Shown: positions 16,260-36,935, counted from the first letter of the stretch. The stretch: 64,000 nt of DNA from Candidatus Methanoperedenaceae archaeon (GCA_963753595.1 CAVWCX010000001.1:32001-96000); one strand, 5' to 3'. The notes: generated by a model not told the origin, from the letters alone. Program-made: numbers and translations.

Positions 16260-16273
<14 letters not shown>

Positions 16274-16604
16274 AAGAGGCGAAGTTTATTGGGTCAAACT
16301 CGATCCGATCGAAGGATCAGAGATCGGGAAAACAAGACCAGCTGTCGTGATCTCAAATAATATTAACAATGAATTTGCTGATACTTTAACTGTCATTCCT
16401 GTCACTTCAAGTGTTGGGAAAGTGTACCCTTTTGAAGTTCTCATAAAGAAAGGTATTGCAAATGTATCAACCGATTCTAAAGTCAAGGCAAATCAAATAA
16501 GAACGGTGGATAAAAAGAGGCTGAATGAGCGAATAGGGATAATTCCTGATGAGATATTGAAAGAGATAGAGAAAGCCGTGAAGATCCACCTTGAAATTAA
16601 GTAA
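16260..16604 (+). CDS. mazF: MazF/PemK toxin
   Basis: RRGEVYWVKLDPIEGSEIGKTRPAVVIS, QIRTVDKKRL. Confidence 0.93.
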
Positions 16605-16868: not shown

Positions 16869-17168
16869 TTACATCTCTATCAAAGCAAGCTCGAACTTGA
16901 TCCCCATGCAGGATTGGCAGAATCCCATGAATTCTTTTGCATTGACGGACATTTCATCGTAGAGAGATTTCGATATGTAACAAACTATGTGGACTTTTCC
17001 GGGGTTCCCGGCGAGTTTCTTTTTTATTTCGCCGTGAAGCTCCTCAAAAATCGCCACAAAGGTCTTAAAGTTGATCCTTTTCAGGATACGGATGCGCCCC
17101 ACCCCTGTTTCATCTACCCATATCCTGTAATTGGCAGATTTTCTAACAAAAAGATCCGTATCATCCAT
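16869..17168 (-). CDS. Hypothetical protein with C-terminal CxxC
   Basis: 99-aa ORF 9 nt downstream of the 17178 gene, same strand. Confidence 0.7.
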   Translation of the reverse strand: MDDTDLFVRKSANYRIWVDETGVGRIRILKRINFKTFVAIFEELHGEIKKKLAGNPGKVHIVCYISKSLYDEMSVNAKEFMGFCQSCMGIKFELALIEM

Positions 17169-17177
17169 AATAGATTC

Positions 17178-17586
17178 TTAGTTCCTCTTACCGGCCTGGA
17201 TATCCCATCTCACATCTTGCGCCAGAGACCGTCTTGCAGCAGCTGCAATATCTAATTGTTCATATATATATTCACGTAAGTACATATCTTCTATTTTTTC
17301 CGCTTCATTTTCGATCTCATGCTGGCGACTGAGAATGTTTCCAAGTTCTCTTTGTGCATGATTCCTGTCTGTACGCTGCCAGCTTTCAGCTATTGTCGAA
17401 AGCGAGCGCCTTAATCTTTCAAGTCCGATCCTTATCCGGTGGAATTCCGGTCTTTTCAATCTTTCTTTTGCATAGTTTTCATATGGCGATTCCTGTTGAA
17501 TTTCCTCTGAAAATTCATCTATATCCGATACTTCACCATTCCATTTGTTATGGATGGCAAAAACGATCCCTTCTTTGGTTTAACAT
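17178..17586 (-). CDS. Helical hypothetical protein (~135 aa), predicted to be made by +1 frameshift at TTT-TGC (17557-17562) from leader MLNQRRDRFCHP* (17548..17586)
   Basis: +1 frame open for 128 codons from the slip site to the stop at 17178; no ATG before the TTG at 17459. Confidence 0.7.
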
Positions 17587-17615
17587 ATATTTCACATCAT
17601 CTTCATTAAAAAGAT

Positions 17616-17683
17616 GATATATATCCCTGAATATACAGGCAGGTTTTGTCACCATCTAAACAGAACCGGAATTATTACGACAA
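17616..17683 (-). promoter_or_regulatory. Degenerate regulon operator plus TATA
   Basis: ATACAGGCAG (17633-42) + 36 nt + GACAA (17679-83) next to TATATAT. Confidence 0.5.
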
Positions 17684-17726
17684 CAATTGCCTGATAGGGT
17701 AAACTTATGCTGATACTCTTCATAAA

Positions 17727-18035
17727 ATGGTTTCGGTGATCAATATGAGGGATATTTTTACAGGTGATGGGTTTAAGTTGCCAGATACAGGCATTTCAGG
17801 AAAAGGATTGGAAAATTACAGTTCTGCTAAGATCGAAGAATTCTCACCTTCGATGAAACTTGTTCTCAATATACTTGAAAATCATGGGCCACTGACACAA
17901 AAAGAGATAACGAAGGTAACCCGTCTTCCCACAAGAACAGTGCGCTATGCCTTAAACAGATTAAAACAGGAAGATATTTTAGAAGAGCGTGAATATTTCC
18001 AGGATGCCAGGCAGTGTTTATATCATATAAAATGA
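17727..18035 (+). CDS. Winged-helix (MarR/TrmB-like) transcriptional regulator
   Basis: KLVLNILENHGPLTQKEI...LPTRTVRYALNRL...DARQCLY. Confidence 0.88.
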   Translation: MVSVINMRDIFTGDGFKLPDTGISGKGLENYSSAKIEEFSPSMKLVLNILENHGPLTQKEITKVTRLPTRTVRYALNRLKQEDILEEREYFQDARQCLYHIK

Positions 18036-18080
18036 TTAGGCTTTTTTCAGGACTCTACAAGACTTGTTTTCAGGTAATAA

Positions 18081-18150
18081 TTGCCTTTGTCTTTCTGGAA
18101 ACCGAATGAATATATCAAATTTGGCTCATTTACTCGATTTAAATATATAT
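18081..18150 (+). promoter_or_regulatory. Regulon operator plus TATA
   Basis: TTGCC (18081-85), CCGAATGAA, TGGCTCATTT (18122-31) at 36-nt spacing, then TTTAAATATAT. Confidence 0.65.
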
Positions 18151-18176
18151 GAAAACTATGTTGTTTTGGTGATAAA

Positions 18177-18333
18177 ATGACACTACAAGAAAACAGAAGG
18201 GATTTACTTTGTCCCCGGAATAAAATACAGTAAAACAAAAAAGGCTATCAATCCCGAAAGTGATCAGGAGAAAGCATTGGGCGAATTTCAGGTTAATGCC
18301 CGGATGCATGATAATGTCTGGTGGCTTATATGA
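18177..18333 (+). CDS. Leader MTLQENRRDLLCPRNKIQ* (18177..18233) with +1 extension from CTT-TGT (18207-12) whose TGA overlaps the next ATG
   Basis: GGTGA RBS, ATG, shared motif AGA AGG GAT TTA CTT TGT; +1 frame open 42 codons ending in an ATGA overlap at 18330-33. Confidence 0.7.
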
Positions 18334-18479
18334 CCGCGACCAGACAGTACAAATGCCCGAACTGCAAACATTCGATATCGATAGCAACGGCAGATTTCAT
18401 CCGGGGGATTGCCATGACATCATGCGGTGATTGCGGCAGGAATGCTTTTGCAATAGACGAAGTTCTGTTGAATGGATAA
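18330..18479 (+). CDS. Small Zn-ribbon protein, 49 aa (below track cut-off)
   Basis: MTATRQYKCPNCKHSISIATADFIRGIAMTSCGDCGRNAFAIDEVLLNG; two CxxC pairs, GGTGG RBS. Confidence 0.8.
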   Translation: MTATRQYKCPNCKHSISIATADFIRGIAMTSCGDCGRNAFAIDEVLLNG

Positions 18480-18545
18480 AAAAAAACAGGGCGCTTTAAA
18501 TGATCCTATCCATTGGCGCCCCTTTCCTTATTTTTTGAGGTAAAA

Positions 18546-18641
18546 ATGAATAATAATAATGAAGAAAGAAATAAAAATAAAAATCCAGATGATGATGAAG
18601 ACCTGAGGCGCTTCCTGCGTGGAGGTTTTGGGGCAAAGTGA
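18546..18641 (+). CDS. Putative 31-aa peptide MNNNNEERNKNKNPDDDEDLRRFLRGGFGAK
   Basis: GAGGT RBS just before ATG; no homology recognised. Confidence 0.4.
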   Translation: MNNNNEERNKNKNPDDDEDLRRFLRGGFGAK

Positions 18642-18791
18642 GCGCACGAGCAATAACGGAATGTGTCCGGGGGGTCACATTTCACCTCCTGTTTTATTAC
18701 TTCCAAAAGAATCAGATCAGTTGTGACAACAATTGCTCCGATAAATAGGTTTATAAAGGTTAAATCCAAGTTTAAGCTGGAGAATTTAAAA

Positions 18792-19080
18792 ATGAATTTT
18801 AGAAGGAATCGTCTTTGCCATTACTGGCCCACAGATTGAATCGATAAAGATAGACCATTTACCGCCATCAGCAAAACTTGTTTTTAAGGTGCTTGAATCG
18901 AGCGGTTTTTTAACACAGAAAGATATTGCAAAGCAAACATATCTTCCGGCCAGGACAGTGCGTTATGCCCTGAACAGGCTGAAAGAAGAAAAAATATTGC
19001 AGGAGCGCTTCTATTTCCAGGATGCGCGCCAGAGCCTTTATGGGCTGAATGTTATTGTTCCGGGGGTGGTGAACGTATAA
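18792..19080 (+). CDS. Winged-helix regulator (~95 aa), predicted to be made by +1 frameshift at CTT-TGC (18813-18) from leader MNFRRNRLCHYWPTD* (18792..18839)
   Basis: Paralog of 17727 gene; homology (KIDHLPPSAKLVFKVLE vs KIEEFSPSMKLVLNILE) extends upstream of the GTG at 18889 into a frame with no ATG/GTG/TTG. Confidence 0.8.
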
Positions 19081-19150
19081 TTTACCTTACCTCCTTATTT
19101 TTTAGACCGCTGCTAATCACTTTTTTTGTAAAATCGAATTATTCGGGTAA

Positions 19151-19510
19151 TTATACGCGCGAATCTCTCAGCCTGTATTTAGCATACGCCAGAACATTCT
19201 CCTCAATGAACCCCGGAGCTTCAACTGGCTCTATACCCATGCTCTGCAATCCTTCTGCAGCCCCTCCTCCGATCCTGCTGCACAGCACCGCATCGCAGTC
19301 ATTGATCAGAGAAACACTTTTTTCAAGAGCATCATCGGCATGACCGCCATACTCAAGAGTACCGCATGAGGGATCGTTCTCTCTCACCTCAATGACTTTG
19401 ATCCCTTCTCCATCGGATTCTATTATGATGAATTTTCTTGCCTTCCCGAAATGCTGGTTAATAACCTTACCATCACTTGAAGCAATTGCCATCTTTAAAC
19501 TTGTCTTCAT
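19151..19510 (-). CDS. NifX/NifB-family (FeMo-cofactor-carrier-like) protein
   Basis: AIASSDG..INQHFGKA..DCDAVLCSRIGGGA. Confidence 0.88.
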   Translation of the reverse strand: MKTSLKMAIASSDGKVINQHFGKARKFIIIESDGEGIKVIEVRENDPSCGTLEYGGHADDALEKSVSLINDCDAVLCSRIGGGAAEGLQSMGIEPVEAPGFIEENVLAYAKYRLRDSRV

Positions 19511-19514
19511 GATC

Positions 19515-20378
19515 TCACACCAGCGGTCTTGGCTGCTTTTCATTGGGCAGTACCGGGAGCTTCATCGTATTCACAAGGATCGGGTCTTTCACTTCTTTTG
19601 CCCGCTCAAGCAAAAACTCTCTTCCTCTTCTGGTGATCGCGAATATGGGTACAGCCGTGCCGAATTGCGCTATGGTCTTTCCAGCTACGCCAGCCCGTAT
19701 CCATTTTGATGTGCAGCCTGTGGTCATATCCACAAGATCGATAAATTCTTTTGCTTCGTTATCAGGCATGCCTGTTGAATGTACTCCGAATGCTATTACT
19801 TCAGAGCCGGTTTCCTTTTCGATTTTTCTTATTTCTTTGAGATCTTTGAGATTTGCCACGGATACACCTATCTTCCTGTATCCAAGCTTTATGGCTTTTC
19901 TCACCCCGCTCACCTGGTCTATCGCGGCAGTGTCGGGGTCAATGACCACGCCGTCAGCAGCCTCTATCCTTTTGATCAGCCCCTGTATTGGTGACGTCTC
20001 CGTCAGTCCTGATATGCGCGAGCCCATGCCCTGACAGAGTTTGGGATTGCTCGTGATTACTGTGCCCGCCCCGTCGCAAACGGTAACTGTGGTGTCGAGC
20101 AGCCCGCGCCGCAGGGCGGTCATGAAAGTTTCGCTTGCCCCGAACCCCACGAATATCTCCATCTCCAGTTCACGGTTCTCTGTGAACATGCCGAAATCTT
20201 TCATCCTGAATTCTATATTTTCCCTGGCGGTCTTTGGGGTGAATTTCTTGATCCCCCTGACCTTATCAAAGATGGGACAGTACTCAGTCATCGGAACACC
20301 GACCTCAATTACCTTCCCGTTCTCAATGACTACTCGCGTTCTGCCCTGAAGTTCCATTACATGTCGTTCTTTTGGCAT
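19515..20378 (-). CDS. Methanogenesis marker protein 8 (DUF2099)
   Basis: HVMELQGRTRVVI, YCPIF, NIEFRMKDFGMFT, VCDGAGTVI, GMGSRISGL. Confidence 0.85.
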   Translation of the reverse strand: MPKERHVMELQGRTRVVIENGKVIEVGVPMTEYCPIFDKVRGIKKFTPKTARENIEFRMKDFGMFTENRELEMEIFVGFGASETFMTALRRGLLDTTVTVCDGAGTVITSNPKLCQGMGSRISGLTETSPIQGLIKRIEAADGVVIDPDTAAIDQVSGVRKAIKLGYRKIGVSVANLKDLKEIRKIEKETGSEVIAFGVHSTGMPDNEAKEFIDLVDMTTGCTSKWIRAGVAGKTIAQFGTAVPIFAITRRGREFLLERAKEVKDPILVNTMKLPVLPNEKQPRPLV

Positions 20379-20543
20379 AATTTGCCTCCTTATATTATGA
20401 ATAGTCCTTGCATACTTTTAACGGCTGGCTTTTCGGCAAATTGAGTGAAAAAAGAGGCAAATTTTGCCTCAATTGTATAGCTCGTTAGGTGGGTTTAATG
20501 TTGAGAATTAAGCAATTTTTCCTTTTCGGCAATAACTTACCAA

Positions 20544-20777
20544 TCACCCCTTCTTCACAAAAATGTGGTATGCTCCCTCTTTTGTTTTGACATCAAGGAA
20601 CTCATCACCGGATTTTGTCAACCATACATCGATATTTTGCCAGGCTTCAGGATCGCTGGCTATGACCTCGAGTATTTCACCTTTGTTGAGTTTTCTTAAT
20701 TCCTGAAGTGTCATTACTCGTGGATAGGGGCATTTCTCTCCACGGACGTCCAGCTTAACATTTGAAATTATGGTCAT
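20544..20777 (-). CDS. tusA: TusA-family sulfur carrier
   Basis: LDVRGEKCPYP. Confidence 0.9.
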   Translation of the reverse strand: MTIISNVKLDVRGEKCPYPRVMTLQELRKLNKGEILEVIASDPEAWQNIDVWLTKSGDEFLDVKTKEGAYHIFVKKG

Positions 20778-20788
20778 TATTAACCGCC

Positions 20789-21829
20789 TTATTTTTTATT
20801 TATATCTGCAATTGCCGCTTCTAAAAAGCTCTTATCTATCCAGGAATTGTAATCCACTTTTCCTTCCAGTAAATTATTTTCCTTCATGAATTCCTCTTCG
20901 TCTTTCAGGGCTTGAATTGAAAGATCTGTAATTCTCGGGTCATTATAAACGGTCTTATTGTCGGGATACGCTGCCCTTGTAGCTGTCTCGTTTTGTTTTT
21001 TTGCTTTAGCAAATATTTTCATTGCTTCATCAAAATGTTCATCTGCCCATTGCGATGTTTTCAGATCGATTTTCAATAATCTTTTTACGATTTCAGGATG
21101 TTTCTTTGCAAAATCTCCACGAACGTTGATCGGACTTGGTGGTGATTGGAATTCGGGATGATCTTTTCCACTCCATAGTATTCTTGCTTCCCCTGTGGAT
21201 AAAAGTGGAAATGTTGTACTCTCGCTTTCTACAAGAGCATCGACATCCCCTCTTATCAAGGCTGGACCGGAGGCTGTAAAATCGAGATTGAACGATTCAA
21301 TATCTTTGATAGACAATCCCTCTGTTTTCAATGCTTTTGTAATAGTTGCATGGCGCACAGTCCCTTTCAAATAAGCCACTTTTTTGCCTTTTAGATCCTT
21401 GACGGATTTTATAGCTGAATCATTCCTGACTATTATTGAAGAGGCTGAAATCGGATTACCAAAAGATGAGAGCCCAATTAGTTTGATATCTGCACCAGCT
21501 GCTGCGGTACGCAAAGCCGGATCAGTACCAGTATACGTGAAATCAAGACCGCCGCTGGCTAAAGCTACCATAGCTTCGGAGCCTCCGCCAGTAAATGGAT
21601 AATACTCTATTTTTATCCCATCCTTTGCGAATTCTTCATCCAACCACCCTTTTTCTATGTTTAATAAGAATTTGAGATGGCCAGGGGCTGTACTTCCAAT
21701 TTTAATTACTGAGATCTTTTCCTCACTATTTTGTGAGTTATTTTCATAAAAATAAATACCCGCCGAGCCTATTAATAAGGCTATTATCCCAATACTTAAT
21801 GCTGATTTACGTGTCATATTTTCCCACAT
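20789..21829 (-). CDS. SsuA/TauA-like ABC substrate-binding protein
   Basis: N-terminal anchor, ALASGGLD, IKSVKDLKGKKVA, FAKKHPEIVKRLL. Confidence 0.88.
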   Translation of the reverse strand: MWENMTRKSALSIGIIALLIGSAGIYFYENNSQNSEEKISVIKIGSTAPGHLKFLLNIEKGWLDEEFAKDGIKIEYYPFTGGGSEAMVALASGGLDFTYTGTDPALRTAAAGADIKLIGLSSFGNPISASSIIVRNDSAIKSVKDLKGKKVAYLKGTVRHATITKALKTEGLSIKDIESFNLDFTASGPALIRGDVDALVESESTTFPLLSTGEARILWSGKDHPEFQSPPSPINVRGDFAKKHPEIVKRLLKIDLKTSQWADEHFDEAMKIFAKAKKQNETATRAAYPDNKTVYNDPRITDLSIQALKDEEEFMKENNLLEGKVDYNSWIDKSFLEAAIADINKK

Positions 21830-23233
21830 TTATTTAAGTATCTCTATAAATGATTCTATACGATTCTGTGTCTGTTCAACTGATTCTAATCGTCCCAGTT
21901 CAGCAACTTCCAGGTTAATTGTTGGGACCCCTGTTTCTTCTTTCACAATGTCGGCGATCATCCTGGAAACAGCCGATTGGTAGCTGCATCCCCAGTTATA
22001 GCCGCATATAACACCATCAGCTCTTGATTTTTTCACTAATCCGACTATCCACTCAGCACGCACCTCAGTGGATTGTTCATAGGAATACGAAAGCACGCTT
22101 CGGGCTAATTTTTCATACGAATCGCCTGTTTCCTCAACATCGGCATAAATTTTGTTTAAGTGGTCATCTGTTCCCACTATTAAACCGCCTTTTTCTTCTA
22201 CGAAATCACCGCGAAGACCAAAGCACGAACCGCATGAAAATACCCTGACCGGATCGTCCTCTAATCCATCTGCTTTTACCGAGTGCTTTATCCGATCCTT
22301 TACTTCACGTTTTGCCCCCTCAAGAAGCTGTGTTGCGGCAAGAGAATCGCCTCGATCAAACCTGCCAAGAGTGATAGTACTTGATGTCTCTGTACTATTT
22401 ATTGGAGGAGTTGATGCCGACCAGGAAAGCTCAACCGTTTCACGCGCCAGCCGCCGTCCTTTATTTTCCAGCTTGATCTCCTTTTTCAGATCTTCATCGC
22501 TGGCTTCACTACCTTTTATTTCACCGATCTTTTTTATCAACCCATAAATTCTTGCTGCAAGATATTTTACTGTCCAGTCTTTATCCCGGGTGATAGGATA
22601 ATCGATTAAATATACAGGTACCTTGTGTTTATGAGTTCTATAAGATTCGATCGCATAAGCAATATCTGAGCAGCGTAAGCACATATACGGTGCGATCAGA
22701 TCAACAGGTACTAATTCTTGATGAATTGATTCTATGGCAGCTATTGGATTGTTGCACGCCTCGATAGAGACTGCTTTTCTTCCGCCTTCAAGTATTGTAT
22801 TCACGCGCTTGCCCGCTTCTCGTAAATTTAACCCTTCTTCCATATCCCTTGCCCAGCCCCTGAGTGGTCCTGGAACAATGGGTATCCCTCCGGCTGCAAA
22901 ATAAGGATCAACGGTCTGCCCTCCCTGAACATGTATGATCGGTGTACCCTGGCTATGTGCTTTTAAAAGGCGGTCCCTCAGTGTAAGAGAAAGATAGCCC
23001 CTTTTTATCCCGCTGAAGAATCCCACATCTTTTGACAATTGGCTATTGTGGAATCGTCCCAAACTGAATGCATGGGGAAATCTTCTTGGAGCTTCTTTTG
23101 TCATAAAATTCCAGATATCGGTGGATGAAACATGTGTCCCATCCCTGAAATCAAGTCCAGGGGTTTCTATAAATCGTTCTTTTATTTCTTCGGGGTATGA
23201 AAAGATTTCTTCGTTGTTATTTAATTTATTCAT
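21830..23233 (-). CDS. 2-hydroxyacyl-CoA dehydratase/benzoyl-CoA reductase-family Fe-S subunit (double-cubane-protein-like)
   Basis: ADGVI.....CSYQ, GVPTINLE, QNRIESFIE C-terminal signature; several Cys. Confidence 0.82.
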   Translation of the reverse strand: MNKLNNNEEIFSYPEEIKERFIETPGLDFRDGTHVSSTDIWNFMTKEAPRRFPHAFSLGRFHNSQLSKDVGFFSGIKRGYLSLTLRDRLLKAHSQGTPIIHVQGGQTVDPYFAAGGIPIVPGPLRGWARDMEEGLNLREAGKRVNTILEGGRKAVSIEACNNPIAAIESIHQELVPVDLIAPYMCLRCSDIAYAIESYRTHKHKVPVYLIDYPITRDKDWTVKYLAARIYGLIKKIGEIKGSEASDEDLKKEIKLENKGRRLARETVELSWSASTPPINSTETSSTITLGRFDRGDSLAATQLLEGAKREVKDRIKHSVKADGLEDDPVRVFSCGSCFGLRGDFVEEKGGLIVGTDDHLNKIYADVEETGDSYEKLARSVLSYSYEQSTEVRAEWIVGLVKKSRADGVICGYNWGCSYQSAVSRMIADIVKEETGVPTINLEVAELGRLESVEQTQNRIESFIEILK

Positions 23234-23245
23234 ATTTCCTCTTAT

Positions 23246-23430
23246 TTATTTAAGTATCTCAATAAATGATTCTATTCGATTCTGTGTTTGTTCTACAGAT
23301 TCCATCCTGCCAAGCTCGGCAACTTCGATATTGATAGTTTGAATTCCTGTTTCTTCTTTAACAATGTCTGAGAGTATTCTGGAGATCCCGGACTGGTAAT
23401 TTGTTTATCCTGTCTATTTGATTGATTCAT
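23246..23430 (-). pseudogene. Internally deleted paralog of the dehydratase subunit (start fused out of frame to last ~50 codons)
   Basis: YQSGISRILSDIVKEETGIQTINIEVAELGRMESVEQTQNRIESFIEILK* nearly matches the C-terminus of 21830..23233. Confidence 0.85.
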
Positions 23431-23475
23431 ATTTTTAATCCCATATTTTCATAATTATATATTATAAATAATATT

Positions 23476-24336
23476 TTATAATATTGCTGTATCATGTTCC
23501 CCTTTCCAGTATGTTGCTTTCTTTTCCATCCAAACAAGTGCATAGTTTAGTGATAGACCAATTATTGCAAGAGTTAATATTCCCGCATACATCTCGGGAA
23601 TGCGAAACATTAGCTGGGAATCCTGGACAAAATACCCTAATCCTGATTTAGCAGCCAGCATCTCAGCGCCAATTACTACCATCACAGCCGCTTTGGCTGA
23701 AAGCCTCGCACCGGCGATAATAGATGGAATAGTTGCCGGGATGATGATTTTTTTGAAGAGATCTATATCCGATATCCCAAATGATTTAGCGGCTTTTATA
23801 AAAAGAGGATCAACACTCTTTACCCCACTTATTGTATTAATTAACATATACCAGAGCGCCGCATAAAATACTATAGCGATCTTTGAAGTTTCACCGATTC
23901 CAAACAGCATGATGAATAATGGAAGCAAAGCGAATTGCGATGTGTTTCTTAAACTCTGGATGAGTAGATCCGTATACTTTTCAACACGCGAATACCATCC
24001 CATCAAAAGCCCCAATGGAATAGCAATAATGGCGGCTAATCCAAATCCCAGAATAGATCGTTCCATACTTGCTTTTGCATGAAATAATATTTCTCCAGAT
24101 AAAACAAGATTTTTTAGAGTTAAAACTGTTTCAGAAAAGGTGGGGAAAAATATCGAACTGACTAAACCTGTCCTGGGCAGCACCTCCCATGCAAAAAAGA
24201 AGGCAAACAGAAGTATAAGACCATGAGCATGTTTGCTTATTTTTATAATCTTCTCTTTAAATCTCTTTATAAAGCCTTCGATCCCTAAAAAATCTACTTT
24301 TAATTCTTCTTTAGAACTGAATATTTCTTCTACCAT
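23476..24336 (-). CDS. SsuC/TauC-like ABC permease
   Basis: LINTISGVKSVDPLFIKAAKSFG, GAEMLAAKSGLGY. Confidence 0.9.
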   Translation of the reverse strand: MVEEIFSSKEELKVDFLGIEGFIKRFKEKIIKISKHAHGLILLFAFFFAWEVLPRTGLVSSIFFPTFSETVLTLKNLVLSGEILFHAKASMERSILGFGLAAIIAIPLGLLMGWYSRVEKYTDLLIQSLRNTSQFALLPLFIMLFGIGETSKIAIVFYAALWYMLINTISGVKSVDPLFIKAAKSFGISDIDLFKKIIIPATIPSIIAGARLSAKAAVMVVIGAEMLAAKSGLGYFVQDSQLMFRIPEMYAGILTLAIIGLSLNYALVWMEKKATYWKGEHDTAIL

Positions 24337-24362
24337 CTGTATTATCCTCCTTTTTTTCTTTT

Positions 24363-25199
24363 CTATCTTGCATACACAGATGCCAGCTCCCAATCTTTCT
24401 GTGCTTTGAGTACTTCTTCTTTAAGCGCTCCCCAGACTTTATGCCGGTTGTCTGCGAATTCATTACTTGATCTTATGTCTGCGTCTCTTGGTCTTGAAAG
24501 ATCAATATCTAATATTGTTTTTATAATTCCAGGTCTGGCTGTCATAACAGCGACCCTGTCTGCAAGGAATACTGCTTCGTCGATACTGTGAGTTACGAAG
24601 ATAACAGTTGTATGAGTTTTTTCCCAGATTTTGAGAAGCTCATTCTGAAGAATTTCACGGGTTTGTGCATCCAGGGCGGCATAAGGTTCGTCCATCAACA
24701 ATACATCAGGATTGGTTGCAAGCGCTCTTGCTATGGCAACTCTTTGCTGCATACCACCGGAAAGTTGATAGGGAAATCGATCTCCAAAGTCTGACAACCC
24801 GAATTGAGACAAAAGCTTTTTTGCAATTTGTCCTCTTTCCCCTTTTGGAACATTTCGCATTTCTAGTCCGAATTCTATGTTAGAAAGAGCTGTCCTCCAT
24901 GGAAACAACGCATACTGCTGGAATACATATGCAGTTTTGATATTAGGGCCGTCAAGAATTTTGTCATCGATATAGACTTTTCCGGTGGTATGATTTGTCA
25001 ATCCGCCAATTATATCAAGAAATACTGATTTTCCGCAACCACTTGGACCAACAAGTGTGAGAAATTCCCCTTTTCTGATGTTCAGGTTAACGCCAGCCAG
25101 CACCTCAACTTCATTGGAAATCAAGCCGTTGCTGATCACTTTCTGCCCATCTTTAAGTTTAAATTTTTTCGTAATGTCCTCAGTTCTTATTTTGTCCAA
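24363..25199 (-). CDS. SsuB/TauB-like ABC ATPase
   Basis: GPSGCGKS, VFQQYALFPW, LSGGMQQR, VTHSIDEAVFLADR. Confidence 0.93.
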   Translation of the reverse strand: MDKIRTEDITKKFKLKDGQKVISNGLISNEVEVLAGVNLNIRKGEFLTLVGPSGCGKSVFLDIIGGLTNHTTGKVYIDDKILDGPNIKTAYVFQQYALFPWRTALSNIEFGLEMRNVPKGERGQIAKKLLSQFGLSDFGDRFPYQLSGGMQQRVAIARALATNPDVLLMDEPYAALDAQTREILQNELLKIWEKTHTTVIFVTHSIDEAVFLADRVAVMTARPGIIKTILDIDLSRPRDADIRSSNEFADNRHKVWGALKEEVLKAQKDWELASVYAR

Positions 25200-25310
25200 T
25201 CAAAACATCTCCTTCCAATCGTATTCGACTGCGGTATTGTCATTAATTCTTGATCGCAGAATTTCAATAAAAGCCTCAACGCGATTTTGAGAGCTGTATA
25301 GCTCTTTCAC
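25200..25310 (-). pseudogene. 36-aa in-frame stub of another deleted dehydratase-family subunit
   Basis: MKELYSSQNRVEAFIEILRSRINDNTAVEYDWKEMF*; GTG overlaps upstream TGA, stop abuts next TTG. Confidence 0.75.
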
Positions 25311-26500
25311 GCATTTACCTCCTGAATATTTTTATTTCTTACAAGCTCTATAAAAGCCTCAGCTCTTGTTCGTATAGCTCCTTCATCAGAACCGGCATAT
25401 TCCGTATGGATCTCAAGCAAGGGTATTCCCTCTGTTTTGAGAACGTTCTTTGTTTCGCCTGCCTTGAAAGTCCAGGGATCGCAATATCTCAATGTGTGAT
25501 AGATTACTCCCTGCGCCCTGTTGTCTTTGATCAATTGTTTCAGATTTTTAAGCCTCTTATCCGTTTCCAATTCCAAATAAGGTAGCGATGCATGAGGAAC
25601 CCGGTTAAGATATGCGTCTGCTATGCCCTCTATAGAAGGTTCTTTAATATTTACATCCAGGATCGGGTTAAGCCCAGACCACAGGTCATCTCCTACTATC
25701 GTGCCGCCCACCTGCTCGATAATATTTATCAGCTTTCTATCTTTAGGAGGAATTATGCTGCCGGATATGAAAATGCGGGCATCTCCGTTAAGATTTCCAG
25801 TTTTTGGGGTGCCGTGTTTTTCTTTCAGTTCTTTTAAAAGTTCCTGGAGTAATGAATTATACCGCCCTCTATCAAGGTAATATCCTGCCTGTACTATATC
25901 GAAAACTTCACGCCATTTTATAGGTGGTTTGTCAGCTGATTGGTATTTGTATAATTCTATTATGGATTTCCTTATGCTATTGTAAAGTTTGATGGATTCT
26001 GCAAGTTTCTTCTTATCAAGTTCGGTTCCTGCGAATTTTTCTAATCTATGCGTGAAGGCCTCTACTTCTTTGCGGAAATATTCCTGTCCTTCAGGCAGAT
26101 CAAAATTCTTTGGAACTCCAAGAATATCAGTGTTGACCTTGAAGTAATGTTTTATAAGCTCTGCCACGCGGTATGTTTGTAAGCAGGTTGCATCCACTGC
26201 TACCAGATCTGAATTTTTAATATATGGATCCTGGTTCTCTGCAAAGAGCCCTACGAGCTCTCTTGTAAAAACACAATTCTTTGTGGATATATACCTGGAG
26301 CCAATTTCAACCAGTCTGTCGTCTCCTCCTGTTCCAAGCCTGATCGGGATTAATCCAAGGGCGTGGATGATCTCTTCAGGGATATTGTAATTAAACCACC
26401 CAACAACCTTTTCCCCTTTTTTTCTTGCTTCTGCAAGCTCCTGAGGTCTATCCTTTACTGCATTTTCTATTTTGTTTATAGTCTCTAATACCATACTCAC
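25307..26500 (-). CDS. 2-hydroxyacyl-CoA dehydratase/BCR-family subunit (HgdB-like)
   Basis: IPEEIIHALGLIPIRL, GVIYHTLRYCDP, IRTRAEAFIE. Confidence 0.88.
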   Translation of the reverse strand: MSMVLETINKIENAVKDRPQELAEARKKGEKVVGWFNYNIPEEIIHALGLIPIRLGTGGDDRLVEIGSRYISTKNCVFTRELVGLFAENQDPYIKNSDLVAVDATCLQTYRVAELIKHYFKVNTDILGVPKNFDLPEGQEYFRKEVEAFTHRLEKFAGTELDKKKLAESIKLYNSIRKSIIELYKYQSADKPPIKWREVFDIVQAGYYLDRGRYNSLLQELLKELKEKHGTPKTGNLNGDARIFISGSIIPPKDRKLINIIEQVGGTIVGDDLWSGLNPILDVNIKEPSIEGIADAYLNRVPHASLPYLELETDKRLKNLKQLIKDNRAQGVIYHTLRYCDPWTFKAGETKNVLKTEGIPLLEIHTEYAGSDEGAIRTRAEAFIELVRNKNIQEVNA

Positions 26501-27303
26501 ACCTTTGAGCCATAGCTCCTGGCGAGTACTGCCGCTCCCAGTGCCCCAACCAACTGCGGATCATATTCTGGCGCAACTATCTTCGCTTTAAGTACTTCTT
26601 CCAGCGCTGCTTTCATTCCTACATTTTTTGCAACTCCGCCTGAGAAGAAAACATCGCTCTCCACACCTACACGCGAAAACATCCCTGATATCCTGTTTGC
26701 AATGGCATGGTGTATTCCTTTAATTATATTCCCCGGTTTCTCACCTCTTGCCAGCAGTGAGACTGTTTCGGATTCTGCAAAAACCGTGCATGTGCTGCTC
26801 ATCGGGACGATTTCTTTTGCATTTAATGACAGCGGACCCAGGTCGTTCAGTTTAACCTTAAAAACATTTGCCATAACTTCAAGGAACCGCCCTGTTCCTG
26901 CTGCGCATTTGTCGTTCATTGCAAAATCTACAACGTTTCCTTTCTCATCCAGGCGGATCGCTTTGCAATCCTGCCCACCCATGTCTATTATTGTTCTTGT
27001 TGCAGGGTGCAGGTAATGTGCCCCCCTGCCATGGCAGGTAATCTCGGTTACTGTTTTATCTGCATAAGGCGCTGAGATCCTTCCATAACCGGTTGCAACT
27101 ATGTATTTCAGGTCATCACGCTTGAGTTTTGCAGATTTAAGCGCTTTTTCAAGAGCAAGCAAGCCGCTCTCTTCTGAGTTCAATCCGGATTGAACAAGAC
27201 CATACCCGAGGATCGAGCCATTTGACACAATTACTGATTTTGCTGTCAGCGAGCCTACATCCACACCCGCAAATGGCGGTTTTATATTTGATTTCGTTGT
27301 CAT
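26497..27303 (-). CDS. ASKHA-type CoA-dehydratase activase / ATP-dependent reductase (HgdC/BadFG-like)
   Basis: GVDVGSLTAK, ATGYGR, EITCHGRG, IDMGGQD, MNDKCAAGTGRFLE, CTVFAESE. Confidence 0.95.
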   Translation of the reverse strand: MTTKSNIKPPFAGVDVGSLTAKSVIVSNGSILGYGLVQSGLNSEESGLLALEKALKSAKLKRDDLKYIVATGYGRISAPYADKTVTEITCHGRGAHYLHPATRTIIDMGGQDCKAIRLDEKGNVVDFAMNDKCAAGTGRFLEVMANVFKVKLNDLGPLSLNAKEIVPMSSTCTVFAESETVSLLARGEKPGNIIKGIHHAIANRISGMFSRVGVESDVFFSGGVAKNVGMKAALEEVLKAKIVAPEYDPQLVGALGAAVLARSYGSKV

Positions 27304-27348
27304 ATCTTCCTCCTCTTTTACTAAGAGTAAGGTCAATATTCCCTGTGG

Positions 27349-27424
27349 ATATATCACAGTTTAGAAATCAGCAACTATCGCCCTATTTATTCCAGATTCT
27401 GCATGATTGCGGCAATATTTTCCG
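27349..27424 (-). promoter_or_regulatory. Regulon operator plus TATA
   Basis: AAATCAGCAA (27365-74) + 36 nt + GGCAA (27411-15). Confidence 0.8.
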
Positions 27425-27448
27425 ATTCAATTCTGTTTTATGCCGTTT

Positions 27449-28639
27449 TCATGATGCTGATGTTTTTCGATTCAATTCATTTTTTCCACTAACAATAATA
27501 TAAAGTGCCATAACCCCAAACAGAGGTATAAAAGACAGGAAAATTGCCTGTGTGCTGAAAAAATCTCCGATAATTCCTCCCAGCGTTGGCCCGAATATTG
27601 AACCCATGCCATGACCGAAAGAGAAGATGCCCGCTATCTTGCCCTTCTCTCCGTCAATATTTCCGACCTGTGTAAATGTAATAAGTGTGATCAAACCTGA
27701 GCTCATTCCAATAACGACAGATGCTATTGAAATCTGAAAAATATCCCTGCTCATTCCCATAACCAGCAGAGCGAGAATGCTTACAATAAAACTGAATAAA
27801 TACAGGTTATTATTGTTTTTACGAAGCAACTGCCCCCCTAAAAATACCACACAAATAGTTGCGCCTCCCTTTAGCGCTATTAACATAGCAGCTACACCTG
27901 CAGATAAATCAAGGTCTTTGATCACAAGAACAGTGATGAAGGTAATAAAAGTAACAAAAAATGCACCATTTATACTCTCAATAATTGTTGCAGTTACTAA
28001 GGACCTGTTTTTTGCAAGCGCCTTGTAATGATTTGAGGCATCTGCAAATCCAAAATTTTTTGGTTTAGCAGGTAAATTGCTTCCACTATTTGTCCGGGCA
28101 AGAATAACTATGAACGGCGCAAGTAAAAATACGCTTGCAAGTGCGAAATAGCTTTTATAACTTATAACTACTATGGCCATTCCCCCAAGAACAGGCCCTA
28201 TCAATGAACCACCCACATTCATCGAACCCTTGAACCAGCCTCCTTTTTTGATGCCAATGAGGTTCATATTCTTGAAAAAATCAGCGTTGAGTGCGGTTGT
28301 TCTTAGACTTCTTGCCATGCCGAAAAATATCATACTGAAAAGAAGAAGTTCAATACTGGATACATATGAGATGAGAACAATTATTGATGAACCCATTACA
28401 GCGCTTACAGAGTACATCTTTTTGGAACCTAAATAATCCACCATGAATCCCGCAGGTAATACTACAAGTAAATCCCCGATCCCGGCTATCCCTTTGATCA
28501 GCCCGATCTGAGTAGAAGAAGCGTTCAGGCTGAGTGCGTAAATAGGCAGTATTAAATTCACCATACCCATCGCAATACCGGTGCTTATATTGATGAGCAT
28601 AAATTTTAAAATAAGCTCATTACCCTTGAAAATCTTCAC
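27449..28639 (-). CDS. MFS transporter
   Basis: About 12 hydrophobic segments, GFMVDYLGSKK motif A. Confidence 0.9.
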   Translation of the reverse strand: MKIFKGNELILKFMLINISTGIAMGMVNLILPIYALSLNASSTQIGLIKGIAGIGDLLVVLPAGFMVDYLGSKKMYSVSAVMGSSIIVLISYVSSIELLLFSMIFFGMARSLRTTALNADFFKNMNLIGIKKGGWFKGSMNVGGSLIGPVLGGMAIVVISYKSYFALASVFLLAPFIVILARTNSGSNLPAKPKNFGFADASNHYKALAKNRSLVTATIIESINGAFFVTFITFITVLVIKDLDLSAGVAAMLIALKGGATICVVFLGGQLLRKNNNNLYLFSFIVSILALLVMGMSRDIFQISIASVVIGMSSGLITLITFTQVGNIDGEKGKIAGIFSFGHGMGSIFGPTLGGIIGDFFSTQAIFLSFIPLFGVMALYIIVSGKNELNRKTSAS

Positions 28640-28659
28640 GCCTAAACTCTAAAAAGCAG

Positions 28660-28736
28660 ATATATAGCACTATACAAATCAGCAAGTGTTACCGTATTTA
28701 TTCGGAAAAACGAACGTTTGAGGCAATTATTTTCCG
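28660..28736 (-). promoter_or_regulatory. Regulon operator plus TATA
   Basis: AAATCAGCAA (28676-85) + 36 nt + GGCAA (28722-26). Confidence 0.85.
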
Positions 28737-28763
28737 GGCTGGCTTAGAACTGTATAACCAGTT

Positions 28764-29984
28764 TTACCCGGCGGTATTTTCTTCAACATTTTCAGGTAAT
28801 TTGCTGATGTTTTCAGATACGATTTTTTTACCACTAATGAATGTATGAATTGCCATCGCGCTAAATGGGATCATAAAAGCAAGAAAAATCGCCTGCACAC
28901 CATAAATATCCCCGATTATTCCACCAAGCGTAGGGCCAATTATAGCGCCAATGCCGTGACCGAAATTAAAGAACCCTGCTATCTTACCTTTTTCCCCATC
29001 CAGACTTCCGACTTCTGTAAAATTGATAAGAGTGATCAGACCGGTGCCTAACCCGTTTAACAACGAGGCCAGACCAAGCTGAATAGTATCAGTTCCTACC
29101 CCCAAAAAAAGAAGTGAAAAAACAGTGGTGATATATGCGAATAAATATAATCTGTTATTGTTCTTCTGCAAGTATGCACCTCCCATGAATACAACAAGCA
29201 AAGTGGACAATCCTTTTAAAGAGATAAGGGCCGCTGCAATACCAGGGGATAACCCCAGGTCTTTGATCACAAGTACTGTAATAAAAACCGTAAATGTCAT
29301 GAAAAATGCGGTATTAATGCCATTTTTGATAGTCGCACTAACCAGGGTCTTGTTCTTTGTAAGAGACAAATAGTGGCTAGAACTGCCGATCAAACTGAGA
29401 TTCTGTTTTTTCACATGCGAACGTATCTTATTTTTTGAGCCGGCATTTATCACCATGAGTGGTATTATTAAAATTGCACCCGTTATAAGAAAATAGCTAT
29501 TAAAACTGAGGGCTACTGCAGCTATACCGCCGATCATAGGTCCCAACAAAGCTGATCCTATGGTCATTGAACCCTTGTACCATCCGGCTTTTTTTACACC
29601 TATTGTATTCATGTTTTGGAAAAATGCAGCGCTTAACGACGTAGTCCTGAAAGTTCTGGCCACACCGTAGAATATCATGGTCAATAAGAGAATTTTCGGA
29701 CTGGCAGCCAGTGATAATAGCATTATTATCACAGCGCTGCAAATGCAGCTTATCGAATATGTTTTTCTTGATCCTAAATAATCCACAATAAATCCGGCGA
29801 CCAGCACTACAAGGATGTCTCCGATGCCTGAAAATCCTTTTATCATACCTATTTCGGTAGAAGTTGCATTCAGGCTGAGGGCATACACAGGGATGATAAA
29901 ATTCATCATGCCAATGGCAATTCCGGAACTGATATTTATTAGCATGAATCTGAAAATAAGTTCGTTGCCCCTGAAAAATTTCAT
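28764..29984 (-). CDS. MFS transporter, tandem paralog of 27449..28639
   Basis: Colinear similarity (MKFFRGNELIFRFMLINIS vs MKIFKGNELILKFMLINIS); upstream region also duplicated. Confidence 0.9.
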   Translation of the reverse strand: MKFFRGNELIFRFMLINISSGIAIGMMNFIIPVYALSLNATSTEIGMIKGFSGIGDILVVLVAGFIVDYLGSRKTYSISCICSAVIIMLLSLAASPKILLLTMIFYGVARTFRTTSLSAAFFQNMNTIGVKKAGWYKGSMTIGSALLGPMIGGIAAVALSFNSYFLITGAILIIPLMVINAGSKNKIRSHVKKQNLSLIGSSSHYLSLTKNKTLVSATIKNGINTAFFMTFTVFITVLVIKDLGLSPGIAAALISLKGLSTLLVVFMGGAYLQKNNNRLYLFAYITTVFSLLFLGVGTDTIQLGLASLLNGLGTGLITLINFTEVGSLDGEKGKIAGFFNFGHGIGAIIGPTLGGIIGDIYGVQAIFLAFMIPFSAMAIHTFISGKKIVSENISKLPENVEENTAG

Positions 29985-30004: not shown

Positions 30005-30082
30005 ATATATAGCACTATAGAAATCAGCAAGGGTTGCTGTATTTATTCGGAAAGACGAATGTTTGGGGCAAGTTTCTATCCG
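30005..30082 (-). promoter_or_regulatory. Regulon operator plus TATA
   Basis: AAATCAGCAA (30021-30) + 36 nt + GGCAA (30067-71). Confidence 0.85.
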
Positions 30083-34974: not shown

Positions 34975-35193
34975 TCAGTGTTTTTTTATGATGACTTTAA
35001 AATCACTGCCAGATTCCTCGATCCGTACTACTTCATGCCCATGTTCCCTGGTCCATTGAGGAATTGCATTTCTTGCAGTAACGTCATCGGTTAAAATTTC
35101 AAGTTCTTCGCCGGTTTTTAGCCCATCTATCTGTTTTTTGGTATAAAACAATGGTAACGGGCATACTCTACCTCTTGCATCTATTTTGTGCAT
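34975..35193 (-). CDS. tusA: TusA-family sulfur carrier
   Basis: IDARGRVCPLP. Confidence 0.9.
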   Translation of the reverse strand: MHKIDARGRVCPLPLFYTKKQIDGLKTGEELEILTDDVTARNAIPQWTREHGHEVVRIEESGSDFKVIIKKH

Positions 35194-35271
35194 GTGTGGT
35201 AGTATGAATGCCGGCATATTTTAAGTTTGTATTAAGGCAAAAAATGTAAGAGTTATTCGCTTTTTGATAAA

Positions 35272-35505
35272 TCAGCTTTTTCGTACAAAGATACTATAAT
35301 TTCCTTTGATAGCCTCTACGGCAAGCAGTTCATTCCCTGATTTCTTTGCCCATGCATCTATATTCTGTGGAGCTACAGGGTCGCTGGCAAGGATTTTTAA
35401 TACCTGCCCCTTTTGAAGTTTGTCCACCTGCTGTTTTGTCCGTATCAAAGGATAGGGGCATGCTTCGCCCCTTACATCCAGTTCGAAGTCGTGAACTATT
35501 GTCAT
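35272..35505 (-). CDS. tusA: TusA-family sulfur carrier
   Basis: LDVRGEACPYP. Confidence 0.9.
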   Translation of the reverse strand: MTIVHDFELDVRGEACPYPLIRTKQQVDKLQKGQVLKILASDPVAPQNIDAWAKKSGNELLAVEAIKGNYSIFVRKS

Positions 35506-35506
35506 A

Positions 35507-35881
35507 TCAGAACACCAGTGTCACTTCACTCTCCAGTATCCTGTTCGTCAGGTCATCGATGTTAAGTTTAGATATTCCTTCGATAATTTCGCTGTCAGCC
35601 ACACCTCTTTTCTTCAGGTCCGCCTCCAGGGCATAGAACTTCACGCTATCCTTTGCCTTAATGATGCTTGCTTCAATGCTTGGCACATCTTTCTGCCATA
35701 CAGCAGCATCGCCGTAGCTGGTCTTCTGTCCCTTTACCACAGAGTGAACACCTCCACTCACAAAAGTGATGGACGGCGAATTTCCTGCCGCAGCCTGCGT
35801 CTCAGCAAGCGGGATCGCGCTGTATGCATCTTCCTTGCCGTAAGGGGGCTGTGTCACGATTATGTTTACTTTCTTGCTCAT
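35507..35881 (-). CDS. DsrF/TusC-like protein
   Basis: IIVTQPPYG, FVSGGVHSVVKGQ, ADLKKRGV. Confidence 0.85.
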   Translation of the reverse strand: MSKKVNIIVTQPPYGKEDAYSAIPLAETQAAAGNSPSITFVSGGVHSVVKGQKTSYGDAAVWQKDVPSIEASIIKAKDSVKFYALEADLKKRGVADSEIIEGISKLNIDDLTNRILESEVTLVF

Positions 35882-35886
35882 TTTTA

Positions 35887-36267
35887 TTACCCTAATAATA
35901 TGGTCTTGTCTGATTCTGCTGTCCATTCACCAAGATCGTAAAGTCCGCCGATGACAACGCCTTCTGTCTGCTGTTTTGTCACACCGCGGGCATCTGTGCA
36001 TTTGATGCATGCTATTGCATCGGTCTTGGGATTCTTCAGTCCTTTCTTGAGAACGGTGCCAAAGAGCTGCTCAACGACTGGGAATTCTTTTGGTCCCTGG
36101 TCGCGGTGTCCGATCAACGTGCCATCCAGGTAGTTGAAGAAGTTGACATTGATCCCTTTCTCTTTTGCAGCATGGGCGAGCCTGATAAGCGTGTATGCCG
36201 CTTCATCGCGATATGGGCCGTTTATCGATACGATCGTTAAGGTTTTATTATAGCCGTTGTTTGCCAT
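35887..36267 (-). CDS. DsrE/TusD-like protein
   Basis: GPY, FFNYLDG, ACIKCTDARG active-site Cys. Confidence 0.85.
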   Translation of the reverse strand: MANNGYNKTLTIVSINGPYRDEAAYTLIRLAHAAKEKGINVNFFNYLDGTLIGHRDQGPKEFPVVEQLFGTVLKKGLKNPKTDAIACIKCTDARGVTKQQTEGVVIGGLYDLGEWTAESDKTILLG

Positions 36268-36276
36268 TGTATCACC

Positions 36277-36603: not shown

Positions 36604-36605
36604 GT

Positions 36606-36831: not shown

Positions 36832-36865
36832 ATTGTATCACCAGATACCTGATTATTAATGCAAT

Positions 36866-36935
36866 ACTTATATCAGTTCAGAAATCAGCAACTTTTGATT
36901 GGTTAATTCTGTTTTTGTAACAATTGGGGCAAGTT
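36866..36935 (-). promoter_or_regulatory. Regulon operator plus TATA
   Basis: AAATCAGCAA (36882-91) + 36 nt + GGCAA (36928-32). Confidence 0.8.

Follow-up and report, generated by a model that had tools for sequence, protein, structure and literature searches.

A candidate +1 frameshift signal with a cysteine codon in the A site precedes a family of archaeal winged-helix regulators

At the yeast +1 sites of Ty1, ABP140 and EST3 (CUU_AGG_C, CUU_AGU_U), slippage occurs on CUU while a slow codon occupies the A site, and the availability of aminoacyl-tRNA sets the efficiency of the shift. Eukaryotes have no upstream SD-like words. For bacterial prfB, the consensus CTT_TGA_C with an SD stimulator is given in the section of the GeneTack survey (PMC3711429) that deals with it, and 'hungry codon' frameshifting is described in the corresponding part of a 2021 review (PMC8211752). 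What is known from archaea? The archaeal passages of that review report one PRF case (-1) and name no cellular +1 case; in the same portions, the recoding reviews (PMC8211752, PMC5009743) give fucA1 (-1) as the sole demonstrated archaeal frameshift, with no cellular +1. The portions of the literature that were searched hold no prior description of the site considered here, although frameshift-cluster supplements and proteomics or Ribo-seq supplements might contain one.

The window, the whole stretch of 64,000 nt of Candidatus Methanoperedenaceae DNA that was analysed, carries at positions 18792-19080 a winged helix-turn-helix (wHTH) gene. Comparison of its relatives makes it probable that translation of this gene depends on a programmed +1 ribosomal frameshift at YUU_UGY, similar in layout to that of prfB except that a sense codon for Cys occupies the A site. 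The features of the locus and of its neighbouring paralogue are as follows.

17680-17691, plus strand: word ACAACAATTGCC, twin of the word at 18726-18737, before the in-frame paralogue
17745-18035, plus strand: in-frame paralogue MRDIFTG... (frame 17727-18035), starting ATG AGG GAT ATT TTT ACA, with SD GGTGATC at 17735-41
18726-18737, plus strand: promoter-proximal word ACAACAATTGCT, a possible operator by inference
18750-18757, plus strand: TATA-like box TTTATAAA, ~35 nt 5' of the ATG; type-A orthologues conserve TTATAAAGG
18779-18782, plus strand: SD GGAG, 9 nt 5' of ATG 18792
18792-18839, plus strand: frame-0 leader ORF of 15 codons (MNFRRNRLCHYWPTD, then stop), of which the first 8 codons alone are proposed to enter the regulator
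18793-18795, plus strand: TGA closing the +1 frame, overlapping the ATG (ATGA)
18804-18818, plus strand: proposed recoding cassette AGG AAT CGT CTT TGC, identical in 27/27 orthologues
18817-19080, plus strand: +1 ORF running from Ala (GCC) through the 87-aa wHTH protein to the stop; predicted product MNFRRNRL-AITGPQ...VVNV, 95 aa
18889-18891, plus strand: first canonical +1 start, GTG, within helix 1; truncated 63-aa product if used

Why invoke a change of frame at all? The +1 frame is open for 94 codons (P0001), from the TGA at 18793-95 to the TAA at 19078-80, and its first ATG, GTG or TTG is GTG 18889, which lies inside KVLE and 3' of LPPSAKLVF. Frame 0 is read from the SD-linked ATG through CTT TGC and ends at TGA 18837-39, six sense codons past TGC. 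The first-pass annotation had read both frames in this way: it had placed the first helix of the wHTH upstream of the first canonical start, the closing TGA at 18793-95 and an early stop behind the GGAG-linked ATG, and all of this can be read directly in the sequence, with GTG 18889 falling inside helix 1. Its arithmetic for the fused product is right (8 + 87 = 95 aa), as is its alignment with the in-frame paralogue at 17727-18035, which gives 63% identity over residues 15-85. Its central claim, that the whole regulator can be made only by a +1 shift at CTT_TGC once translation has begun at the SD-linked ATG, finds strong support in the comparative evidence set out below. In the cassette itself, an SD-like AGGAAUC is separated by 2 nt from the slippery CUU_U at 18813-18816, and the Cys codon UGC occupies 18816-18818; as an exact 14-mer the cassette occurs once in its own genome. 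By the established archaeal promoter layout, the TATA-like box would be a promoter element, and from its distance to the ATG (~35 nt) the 5' UTR would be short and start near the SD.

The proposed sequence of events is simple. A ribosome starting at ATG 18792 would read M-N-F-R-R-N-R-L in frame 0, which brings Leu-tRNA onto CUU in the P site and UGC into the A site. The peptidyl-tRNA would then slip from CUU to UUU, GCC (Ala) would be read next, and translation would run through the winged-helix ORF to yield a 95-aa MarR-type wHTH protein, while ribosomes that do not slip would add Cys and terminate a few codons on. Within AGG-RAU-CGN-YUU-UGY, YUU_U would thus serve as the slippery site and UGY as a slow or sensed A-site codon, and the invariant AGGRAUC, 2 nt upstream of the slip codon, is probably an internal SD-like stimulator, as in bacterial prfB. 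We infer the slippage itself, the residues that meet at the junction (Leu/Phe, then Ala/Val) and the function of AGGRAUC from the frames, the conservation and the codon-level substitutions shown below.

Using Pfam, structure prediction and family alignment, we asked what kind of protein the +1 frame would encode. P0001 matches HTH_24 (PF13412) with an E-value of 9e-6 and a score of 25.6 bits, above the gathering cut-off of 21.9; it scores 19.7 against PF12802 (cut-off 27) and PF01047 is not among the matches listed, which places it outside the MarR family proper. The structure model (pLDDT 82) has helices at 17-29, 34-41 and 45-57 and a two-strand wing, in the order H-H-H-E-E, with the first 8 and last 7 residues disordered. 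In Foldseek, the best PDB matches of residues 17-77 are MarR-family DNA-binding domains (E 3e-5 to 1e-3, TM to query ~0.7). MarR-type regulators such as BpsR (6pco), HpaR (7el3) and MepR share the same three helices and beta-wing with the predicted fold, but they are ~140 aa long and have N- and C-terminal dimerisation helices, which the ~95-aa wHTH product lacks. By sequence, no close solved relative was found, only weak wHTH matches (E >= 0.01). When 23 family members are aligned, 23 positions across the three helices and the wing do not vary, and helix 1 (LPPSAKLVFK) is invariant or nearly so. Public records call the family 'winged helix-turn-helix regulator' or 'TFIIE alpha', at 56-96 residues and with arbitrary starts. 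The window and 12 loci from complete genomes share no conserved gene neighbourhood, and because it is not conserved across the class, no function can be read from synteny.

Thirty-six genomes of the genus Methanoperedens were sampled, and 33 of them have homologues of the wHTH. We compared the 5' regions of our own copy and 26 orthologues (82-95% identity) from 26 other genomes. The 15-mer AGGAATCGTCTTTGC is identical at all 27 loci while the flanks differ, and every locus has an SD-like word and a frame-0 ATG. The leaders are of two types: type A (15/27) reads GGAG-N9-ATG-NNN-NNN-AGA-AGG, with three extra codons, and type B (12/27) reads GGTGAT-N6-ATG-AGG, with the ATG directly before AGG. 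At each of the 27 loci, frame 0 stops 1-6 codons past TGC, and the +1 frame, which offers no start, has its closing stop 0-5 codons 5' of GGA. With at most one mismatch allowed, the 15-mer has 113 matches, spread over 43 of the 49 genus genomes, and its reversed control has 9. The first-pass annotation had named orthologues with an in-frame ATG and no leader as evidence that would speak against a shift; none was found, the orthologues keep the leader, and in-frame versions are paralogues only. Downstream of the proposed shift, variable columns fall on +1 codon positions as 35/27/77 among the 25 orthologues of the same length. Codon periodicity is flat in the 14-codon linker directly after the shift (11/11/12), so that the coding status of this linker rests only on the ORF being kept open and on length changes by whole codons. 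Contigs of four public metagenome runs have no indel at 18698-19100; on this and on the conservation we reject a sequencing error or pseudogene.

How far does the signal extend? Two homologues from other families carry the variant ATG AGG GAT CGT TTT TGT. The pattern ATGAGGRATCGTYTTTGY occurs in 104 of 392 genomes of the class, without a single match for the reversed control, and each of the 20 sites that were sampled in other families stands before a gene of this wHTH family. Relaxed to ATG-AGG-RAT-CGN-YTT-TGY, it is present in 58 of the 401 genomes of a phylum scan (each >=90% complete), again with 0 control matches. Families of other classes carry it in 6/10, 10/43 and 2/4 genomes, and it is absent from three large families of that scan (0/71, 0/35, 0/19); nine of ten sites sampled across the phylum precede wHTH genes. 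The exact 15-mer has no match outside the Methanoperedenaceae. Recurrent one-mismatch matches of the forms AGGTAT.. and AGGAGT.. lie inside long frame-0 ORFs and are no cassettes. Five large genomes of genus g12 have no wHTH homologue at E <= 1e-10, which makes the distribution patchy. Named family proteins are known from Methanosarcina, Methanolobus and Methanomethylovorans, so the carriers include cultured genera.

We gathered 63 distinct wHTH cassette loci across the phylum, of which those of relatives are not independent. All 63 have a frame-0 ATG 1 or 4 codons before AGG, and an SD-like word precedes that ATG at 62. The 4-9 open +1 codons upstream contain a canonical start at none of the 63, and at 43 the +1 frame is closed just 4 codons before the entry codon. 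From the cassette, the +1 frame is open across 12-28 variable linker codons to LPPSAKL at every locus, with lengths that differ by whole codons; the first canonical +1 start lies at or after LPPSAKL at 57 of the 61 loci having one (2/63 are without any). A frame-0 stop follows the Cys codon immediately at 15 of 20 sampled loci outside the Methanoperedenaceae and at 10 of 16 CGA/CGC sites; in these many lineages, non-shifted ribosomes would release a hexapeptide. With 27/27 loci in the genus and 63/63 in the phylum, the arrangement is far beyond chance. The comparison points to an ancient, phylum-wide signal in front of the wHTH family.

In which frame is the cassette read? Sites with at most one mismatch number 141 in 242 genomes (2 control matches), and 55 of them carry a single change. 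In 33 of the 55, CGT has become CGA or CGC, which leaves Arg unchanged in frame 0 and in the +1 frame replaces Val by Asp or Ala. We inspected 16 of these sites, and every one is a wHTH cassette gene, in one case truncated. No single change falls within YTTTGY (0 of 55; 141 sites). Among the other 22 single changes, 10 were inspected and just 3 are wHTH cassette genes (one truncated), so that the one-mismatch tally is noisy outside the CGN class; ATG-to-AAG matches in large genomes were rejected as unrelated ORFs. The synonymy of CGN in frame 0, taken with the +1 periodicity downstream, indicates that ribosomes stay in frame 0 up to and including the Arg codon and read +1 thereafter. The switch must then sit at YUU-UGY, and since YUU to UUU is the sole P-site re-pairing possible there, we assign the slip to this codon.

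Other variable positions seem at first to say the opposite. The A/G alternation in RAT and the C/T alternation in YTT are synonymous in the +1 frame and non-synonymous in frame 0, and taken alone they would fit +1 reading from GGR-ATC. The wHTH might accordingly start at a non-canonical +1 codon, the invariant AUC of GG-AUC-GU, with the ATG-led mini-ORF of MRDRFC type, a separate overlapping frame, modulating no more than that start, and one public record (P0059, 'MVFVD...') does place its start on this AUC. We consider such a start unlikely. The codon after AUC goes from Val to Asp or Ala at the 33 sites at which Arg is kept in frame 0; an SD-spaced AUG 5 nt (type B) or 14 nt (type A) upstream should win initiation, and in type A the SD is ~23 nt from the AUC. 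Moreover, the invariance of YTT-TGY would be left unexplained, and the in-frame paralogues use AUG and have the N-terminus MRDRF.

These paralogues bear on the position of the shift as well. The genome of origin (2.89 Mb, 37 contigs) has two with ordinary starts, one at 17727-18035 of the window and one on contig 24; those of relatives begin MRDIFA or MRDRFA, so that the family reads MRD(R/I)F(A/T) overall. One of them, L022, reads ATG AGG GAT CGT TTT GCA (MRDRFA), the cassette minus one T. At the junction the in-frame paralogues have Ala, Thr or Ser, never Cys. Their N-termini reproduce the predicted trans-frame junction, and by sequence they appear to be natural 'fused' relatives of the cassette. 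Could the shift occur one codon later? In that case Cys would be incorporated and the ribosome would move +1 with Cys-tRNA in the P site, in an antizyme-like step helped by the following stop, giving a product ...L/F-C-.... The stops directly after Cys (TGT TGA, TGC TGA/TAA) at the loci counted above are what such a step would use, but in Methanoperedens Cys is followed by a sense codon that varies (CAT, CAA, AAA, TGT and others), tRNA-Cys(GCA) is unable to re-pair on GYN, and a Cys at the junction is what the paralogues lack. A later shift is therefore very unlikely, and slippage from YUU to UUU with UGY in the A site is the reading that we retain.

A slippery codon, CTT_T or TTT_T, is present in every cassette, and the A-site codon is UGC or UGU at all sites, not a UGA read by the gene's own product as in the prfB type. 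CUU is read by a single tRNA-Leu(GAG), and there is likewise a single tRNA-Phe(GAA) and, for UGY, a single tRNA-Cys(GCA). In long ORFs, in-frame CTT-TGC and TTT-TGC pairs are not avoided (observed/expected 0.85 and 0.91), which suggests that the bare heptamer is not very shifty and that context, including the proposed stimulator, must matter. AGG, RAU and CG occur without their synonymous alternatives (AGA/CGN, RAC) at the 141 sites while the N of CGN is free, and this suggests a role for AGGRAUC at the RNA level. The 16S 3' end is ...GGAUCACCUCCU, and its pairing with AGGRAUC, judged by eye, is partial: AGGA gives 4 bp, or GGGAUC gives 6 bp with GAUCACC and a bulge. Leaders of wHTH genes fold no better than shuffled sequences (z +0.95 to +1.29), and no downstream stimulatory structure is evident in them. 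A hairpin beginning at UGC was seen in the leaders of two other types of cassette ORF only, those of 126 aa and ~40 aa. No Rfam family matches 17000-19300 at E <= 1. Leader-peptide attenuation was considered and rejected, for there is a single Cys codon, no leader structure and no Rfam match, and the main ORF overlaps the leader in another frame.

Three further explanations fare worse. The frame might be repaired in the RNA, by transcriptional slippage or by editing that deletes one U of the U-run, and such a run is indeed present (U3 in CUUUGC, U5 in GUUUUUG). U3, though, is far below the slippage-prone run lengths given in the relevant part of PMC5009743, and repair of this kind leaves the conserved flanks AGGRAUCGN and GY without a reason, which makes it extremely unlikely. 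Just as improbable is that only the 63-aa protein from GTG 18889 is made, or none, the upstream conservation being that of a DNA operator or leader-peptide gene, or the whole a pseudogene or assembly error. Gene callers do annotate short forms (56-96 aa) and a few truncated copies exist (L166, L184, L160, L171); a short product would nevertheless lose the near-invariant helix 1, the +1 frame is open from the cassette to that helix at 63/63 loci with linkers of 12-28 codons, and the same layout recurs in independent assemblies of many genera and in indel-free metagenome contigs. A dedicated tRNA decoding four bases (CUUU/UUUU or UGCN) would likewise yield the +1 frame and is next to negligible, as the genome (92% complete) has yielded 35 tRNA genes, each with an ordinary anticodon, and CTT-T and TGC-N, common in ordinary genes, would be misread.

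Is the cassette tied to the wHTH gene? In Methanoperedens, the leader M-x2-4-R-R-N/D-R-L/F-C also heads other small ORFs, two of them in the window.

17178-17586, minus strand: second cassette-led gene, with ATG 17586, leader MLNQRRDRFCHP and stop, cassette AGGGATCGTTTTTGC at 17571-17557 and a +1 ORF of 126 aa (17558-17178)
36606-36840, minus strand: third cassette-led ORF, 64 aa in the +1 frame behind cassette AGGAATCGCCTTTGT (36813-36799)

The 126-aa ORF (17558-17178) has no Pfam match; homologous ORFs are 126-130 aa long. The leader of the 64-aa ORF starts with ATT in the window and with ATG in relatives. This ORF heads an operon of three DsrE/DsrH-like and two TusA genes (36603-34975), and the 64-aa ORF and DsrE/TusA genes are also linked in both of the other genomes checked (2/2). 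A further cassette ORF, of ~40 aa, stands before a PstS-like lipoprotein gene; among 20 cases, its stop overlaps the start of that gene 18 times and precedes it by 25 nt twice. The cassette is modular and portable between unrelated genes.

Why should the A-site codon always be a Cys codon? We tentatively suggest that the efficiency of the frameshift rises when charged tRNA-Cys is scarce, so that the regulator and the other cassette ORFs would report on sulfur or cysteine supply. Somewhat more doubtful still is the wider proposal of an old and portable 'frameshift attenuator', in which AGG-RAU-CGN-YUU_UGY would gauge charged tRNA-Cys: when it is short, ribosomes waiting at UGY would slip +1, make the Cys-free wHTH regulator and, in Methanoperedens, switch on leader ORFs linked to genes of sulfur relay (DsrE/TusA) and transport. 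Sensing is favoured because Cys (UGC/UGU) is kept at every site although the +1 codon may be either Ala (GCN) or Val (GUN), because one cassette-led ORF heads the DsrE/DsrH/TusA operon, and because the controlled proteins are nearly Cys-free: there are 4 Cys in 5920 residues of 64 wHTH sequences and 0 in 672 residues of the ~40-aa ORFs, whereas long ORFs have 10.4 per 1000. Small DNA-binding proteins, however, often have no Cys, and the sequences counted are related. UGC (6.2 per 1000, the 8th rarest codon) and UGU (4.2 per 1000) are both among the eight rarest. The case is weakened because the U needed after YUU already restricts the A-site codon to UNN, because the genome encodes both SepRS and CysRS, and because the PstS-like gene points to phosphate rather than sulfur. 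The evidence for Cys sensing is thus circumstantial.

Targets of the regulator can be sought among repeated promoter words. The word ACAACAATTGCY ends 54-55 nt before the ATG of both wHTH paralogues; the 64 kb contain 2 exact matches to it and 7 with at most one mismatch, against 2.26 expected. For TTGCTGATTT there are 6 exact copies against 0.43 expected. The TTGCC-N36-TTGCTGATTT sites described in the first-pass annotation do exist (4 found, 0.03 expected); every copy is on the minus strand, and the genes behind them are two for MFS transporters, a BcrAD/HGD-D cluster and the operon of the 64-aa cassette ORF. ACAACAATTGCY and TTGCTGATTT are real promoter-region words and may be operators, to which binding of the regulator is hypothetical. 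The role of 'master switch' that had been suggested for the regulator is unsupported.

If the frameshift occurs as proposed, it would be the first widespread cellular +1 frameshift in archaea, spanning several classes of methanogens and anaerobic methanotrophs. It would also correct a family of transcription factors whose current annotation truncates the protein or starts it arbitrarily, together with the small leader ORFs. A compact and mutable signal of 15 nt would become available for studying frameshifting on archaeal ribosomes, and control of genes by tRNA-Cys charging could be tested in organisms that make cysteine on tRNA; were the sensing real, it would be a new form of ribosome-level sulfur or cysteine sensing in methanogens and methanotrophs. 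With cultured genera among the carriers, the question is directly testable.

How does this signal compare with known frameshift systems? Bacterial prfB (AGGGGG-UAU-CUU_UGA-C) has in common with it the short 5' ORF, the proposed P-site slip from CUU to UUU, an A-site codon that begins with U and is presumably slow, an SD-like word rich in purines at 2-3 nt upstream and the location of most of the protein in the +1 frame. However, the A site of prfB holds the stop codon UGA, whereas the archaeal cassette has the Cys sense codon UGC or UGU, also accepts UUU_U as slip codon and serves several unrelated genes. The feedback logic must also differ, because the product is a DNA-binding protein and not a factor that reads the A-site codon. 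Ty1, ABP140 and EST3 share with the mechanism proposed for the cassette a P-site slip on CUU with a slowly decoded sense codon in the A site, but these are eukaryotic and use a rare Arg or Ser codon, where the cassette has Cys and possibly an upstream SD-like word. Antizyme (UCC_UGA_U), as treated in the relevant sections of PMC8211752 and PMC5009743, has, as is proposed for the cassette, a short ORF0, a +1 shift near its end, and sensor and effector in one circuit; in contrast, it shifts at a stop codon without P-site re-pairing, has downstream pseudoknots and senses polyamines, whereas wHTH leaders are without stable downstream structure. Among archaeal cases, Saccharolobus solfataricus fucA1 (-1, A_AAA_AAT) and the Mg-chelatase of Methanococcales (-1, poly-A) involve archaeal ribosomes too but shift by -1, and the tail genes of haloarchaeal viruses (HSTV-2, for which +1 has been suggested) are archaeal frameshifts as well but viral. 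The mechanism proposed here is notable for its domain, the archaea, for its breadth and for its modular use.

Two further cassettes, copies of the proposed +1 frameshift signal AGG-RAU-CGN-YUU-UGY, lead genes in the window besides the one encoding the predicted winged helix-turn-helix (wHTH) regulator at 18792-19080; a weak cassette-like site and a toxin ORF are listed with them:

17178-17586 (-), second cassette-led gene, with the same leader as the wHTH gene
34975-36840 (-), third cassette-led operon, cassette AGGAATCGCCTTTGT at 36813-36799
18198-18330 (+), weak cassette-like site AGGGATTTACTTTGT
16260-16604 (+), PemK/MazF-type toxin ORF (Pfam E 4.9e-32)

On the minus strand, the leader of the second gene starts at ATG 17586 and reads MLNQRRDRFCHP*, with its cassette, AGGGATCGTTTTTGC, at 17571-17557. 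The +1 ORF encodes 126 aa that match no Pfam family; next comes a 99-aa ORF (16869-17168), which in other genomes lies immediately 5' of a cassette-led ORF of ~40 aa and a PstS-like gene. The third cassette precedes a 64-aa ORF, after which come three DsrE/DsrH-like and two TusA genes. Since its leader has ATT in this genome where relatives have ATG, the copy could be a weakened one or could initiate at a non-canonical codon. The weak site, with a 40-codon +1 ORF and an ATG 7 codons 5', is probably a chance occurrence. The toxin ORF adjoins the cassette gene cluster.

The ~40-aa ORF (…EFIQIRDFL…NSRWN), of which no copy was found in this genome, is conserved at loci L080-L119 of other Methanoperedens genomes, directly 5' of a lipoprotein gene of the PstS/PBP_like_2 family. 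In 18 of 20 cases its stop and the lipoprotein start share 1-4 nt, and in the other two the stop lies 25 nt upstream, an arrangement that looks like translational coupling. At L113 the two are fused.

In some genera of family f4 (L126, L128, L032 and similar loci), the cassette-led wHTH protein has a C-terminal extension of 30-40 residues ending ...KEYEVLA/YELTAF, and the basic linker that follows the shift site is longer. A second wHTH copy at L019 (genome G023), a paralogue of the type found in-frame at 17745-18035 (+), reads ATG AGG TAT CGT TTT GTC AGA TAA. Its wHTH lies in the +1 frame following TTT_G, which reflects either a recent frameshift mutation or a slip context of another kind.

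Among in-frame codon pairs in long ORFs of the window's own genome, NNT-TGG is much rarer than expected (CTT-TGG, 17 pairs where 164 are expected; observed/expected for ATT-TGG 0.21, GTT-TGG 0.20, TTT-TGG 0.43) and NNC-TGG is ~2.2-fold over-represented. As a plain hexamer, CTTTGG is not rare there.

A long cluster runs convergent toward the wHTH gene, and a recurrent promoter word lies on the same strand as that cluster:

19151-29984 (-), two MFS transporters, BcrAD/BadFG ATPase, two HGD-D proteins, ABC transporter with NMT1-type binding protein, TusA, methanogenesis marker 8 (DUF2099), Nitro_FeMo-Co protein
27365-27415, 28676-28726, 30021-30071, 36882-36932 (-), TTGCC-N36-TTGCTGATTT
34803, 42958, two further positions

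The four copies compare with 0.03 expected, and a TATA-like AATAAATA is enclosed between the TTGCC and TTGCTGATTT words. Downstream of the sites lie two MFS transporter genes, a cluster of BcrAD/HGD-D genes and the operon headed by the cassette-led 64-aa ORF; the sites are one shared promoter type.
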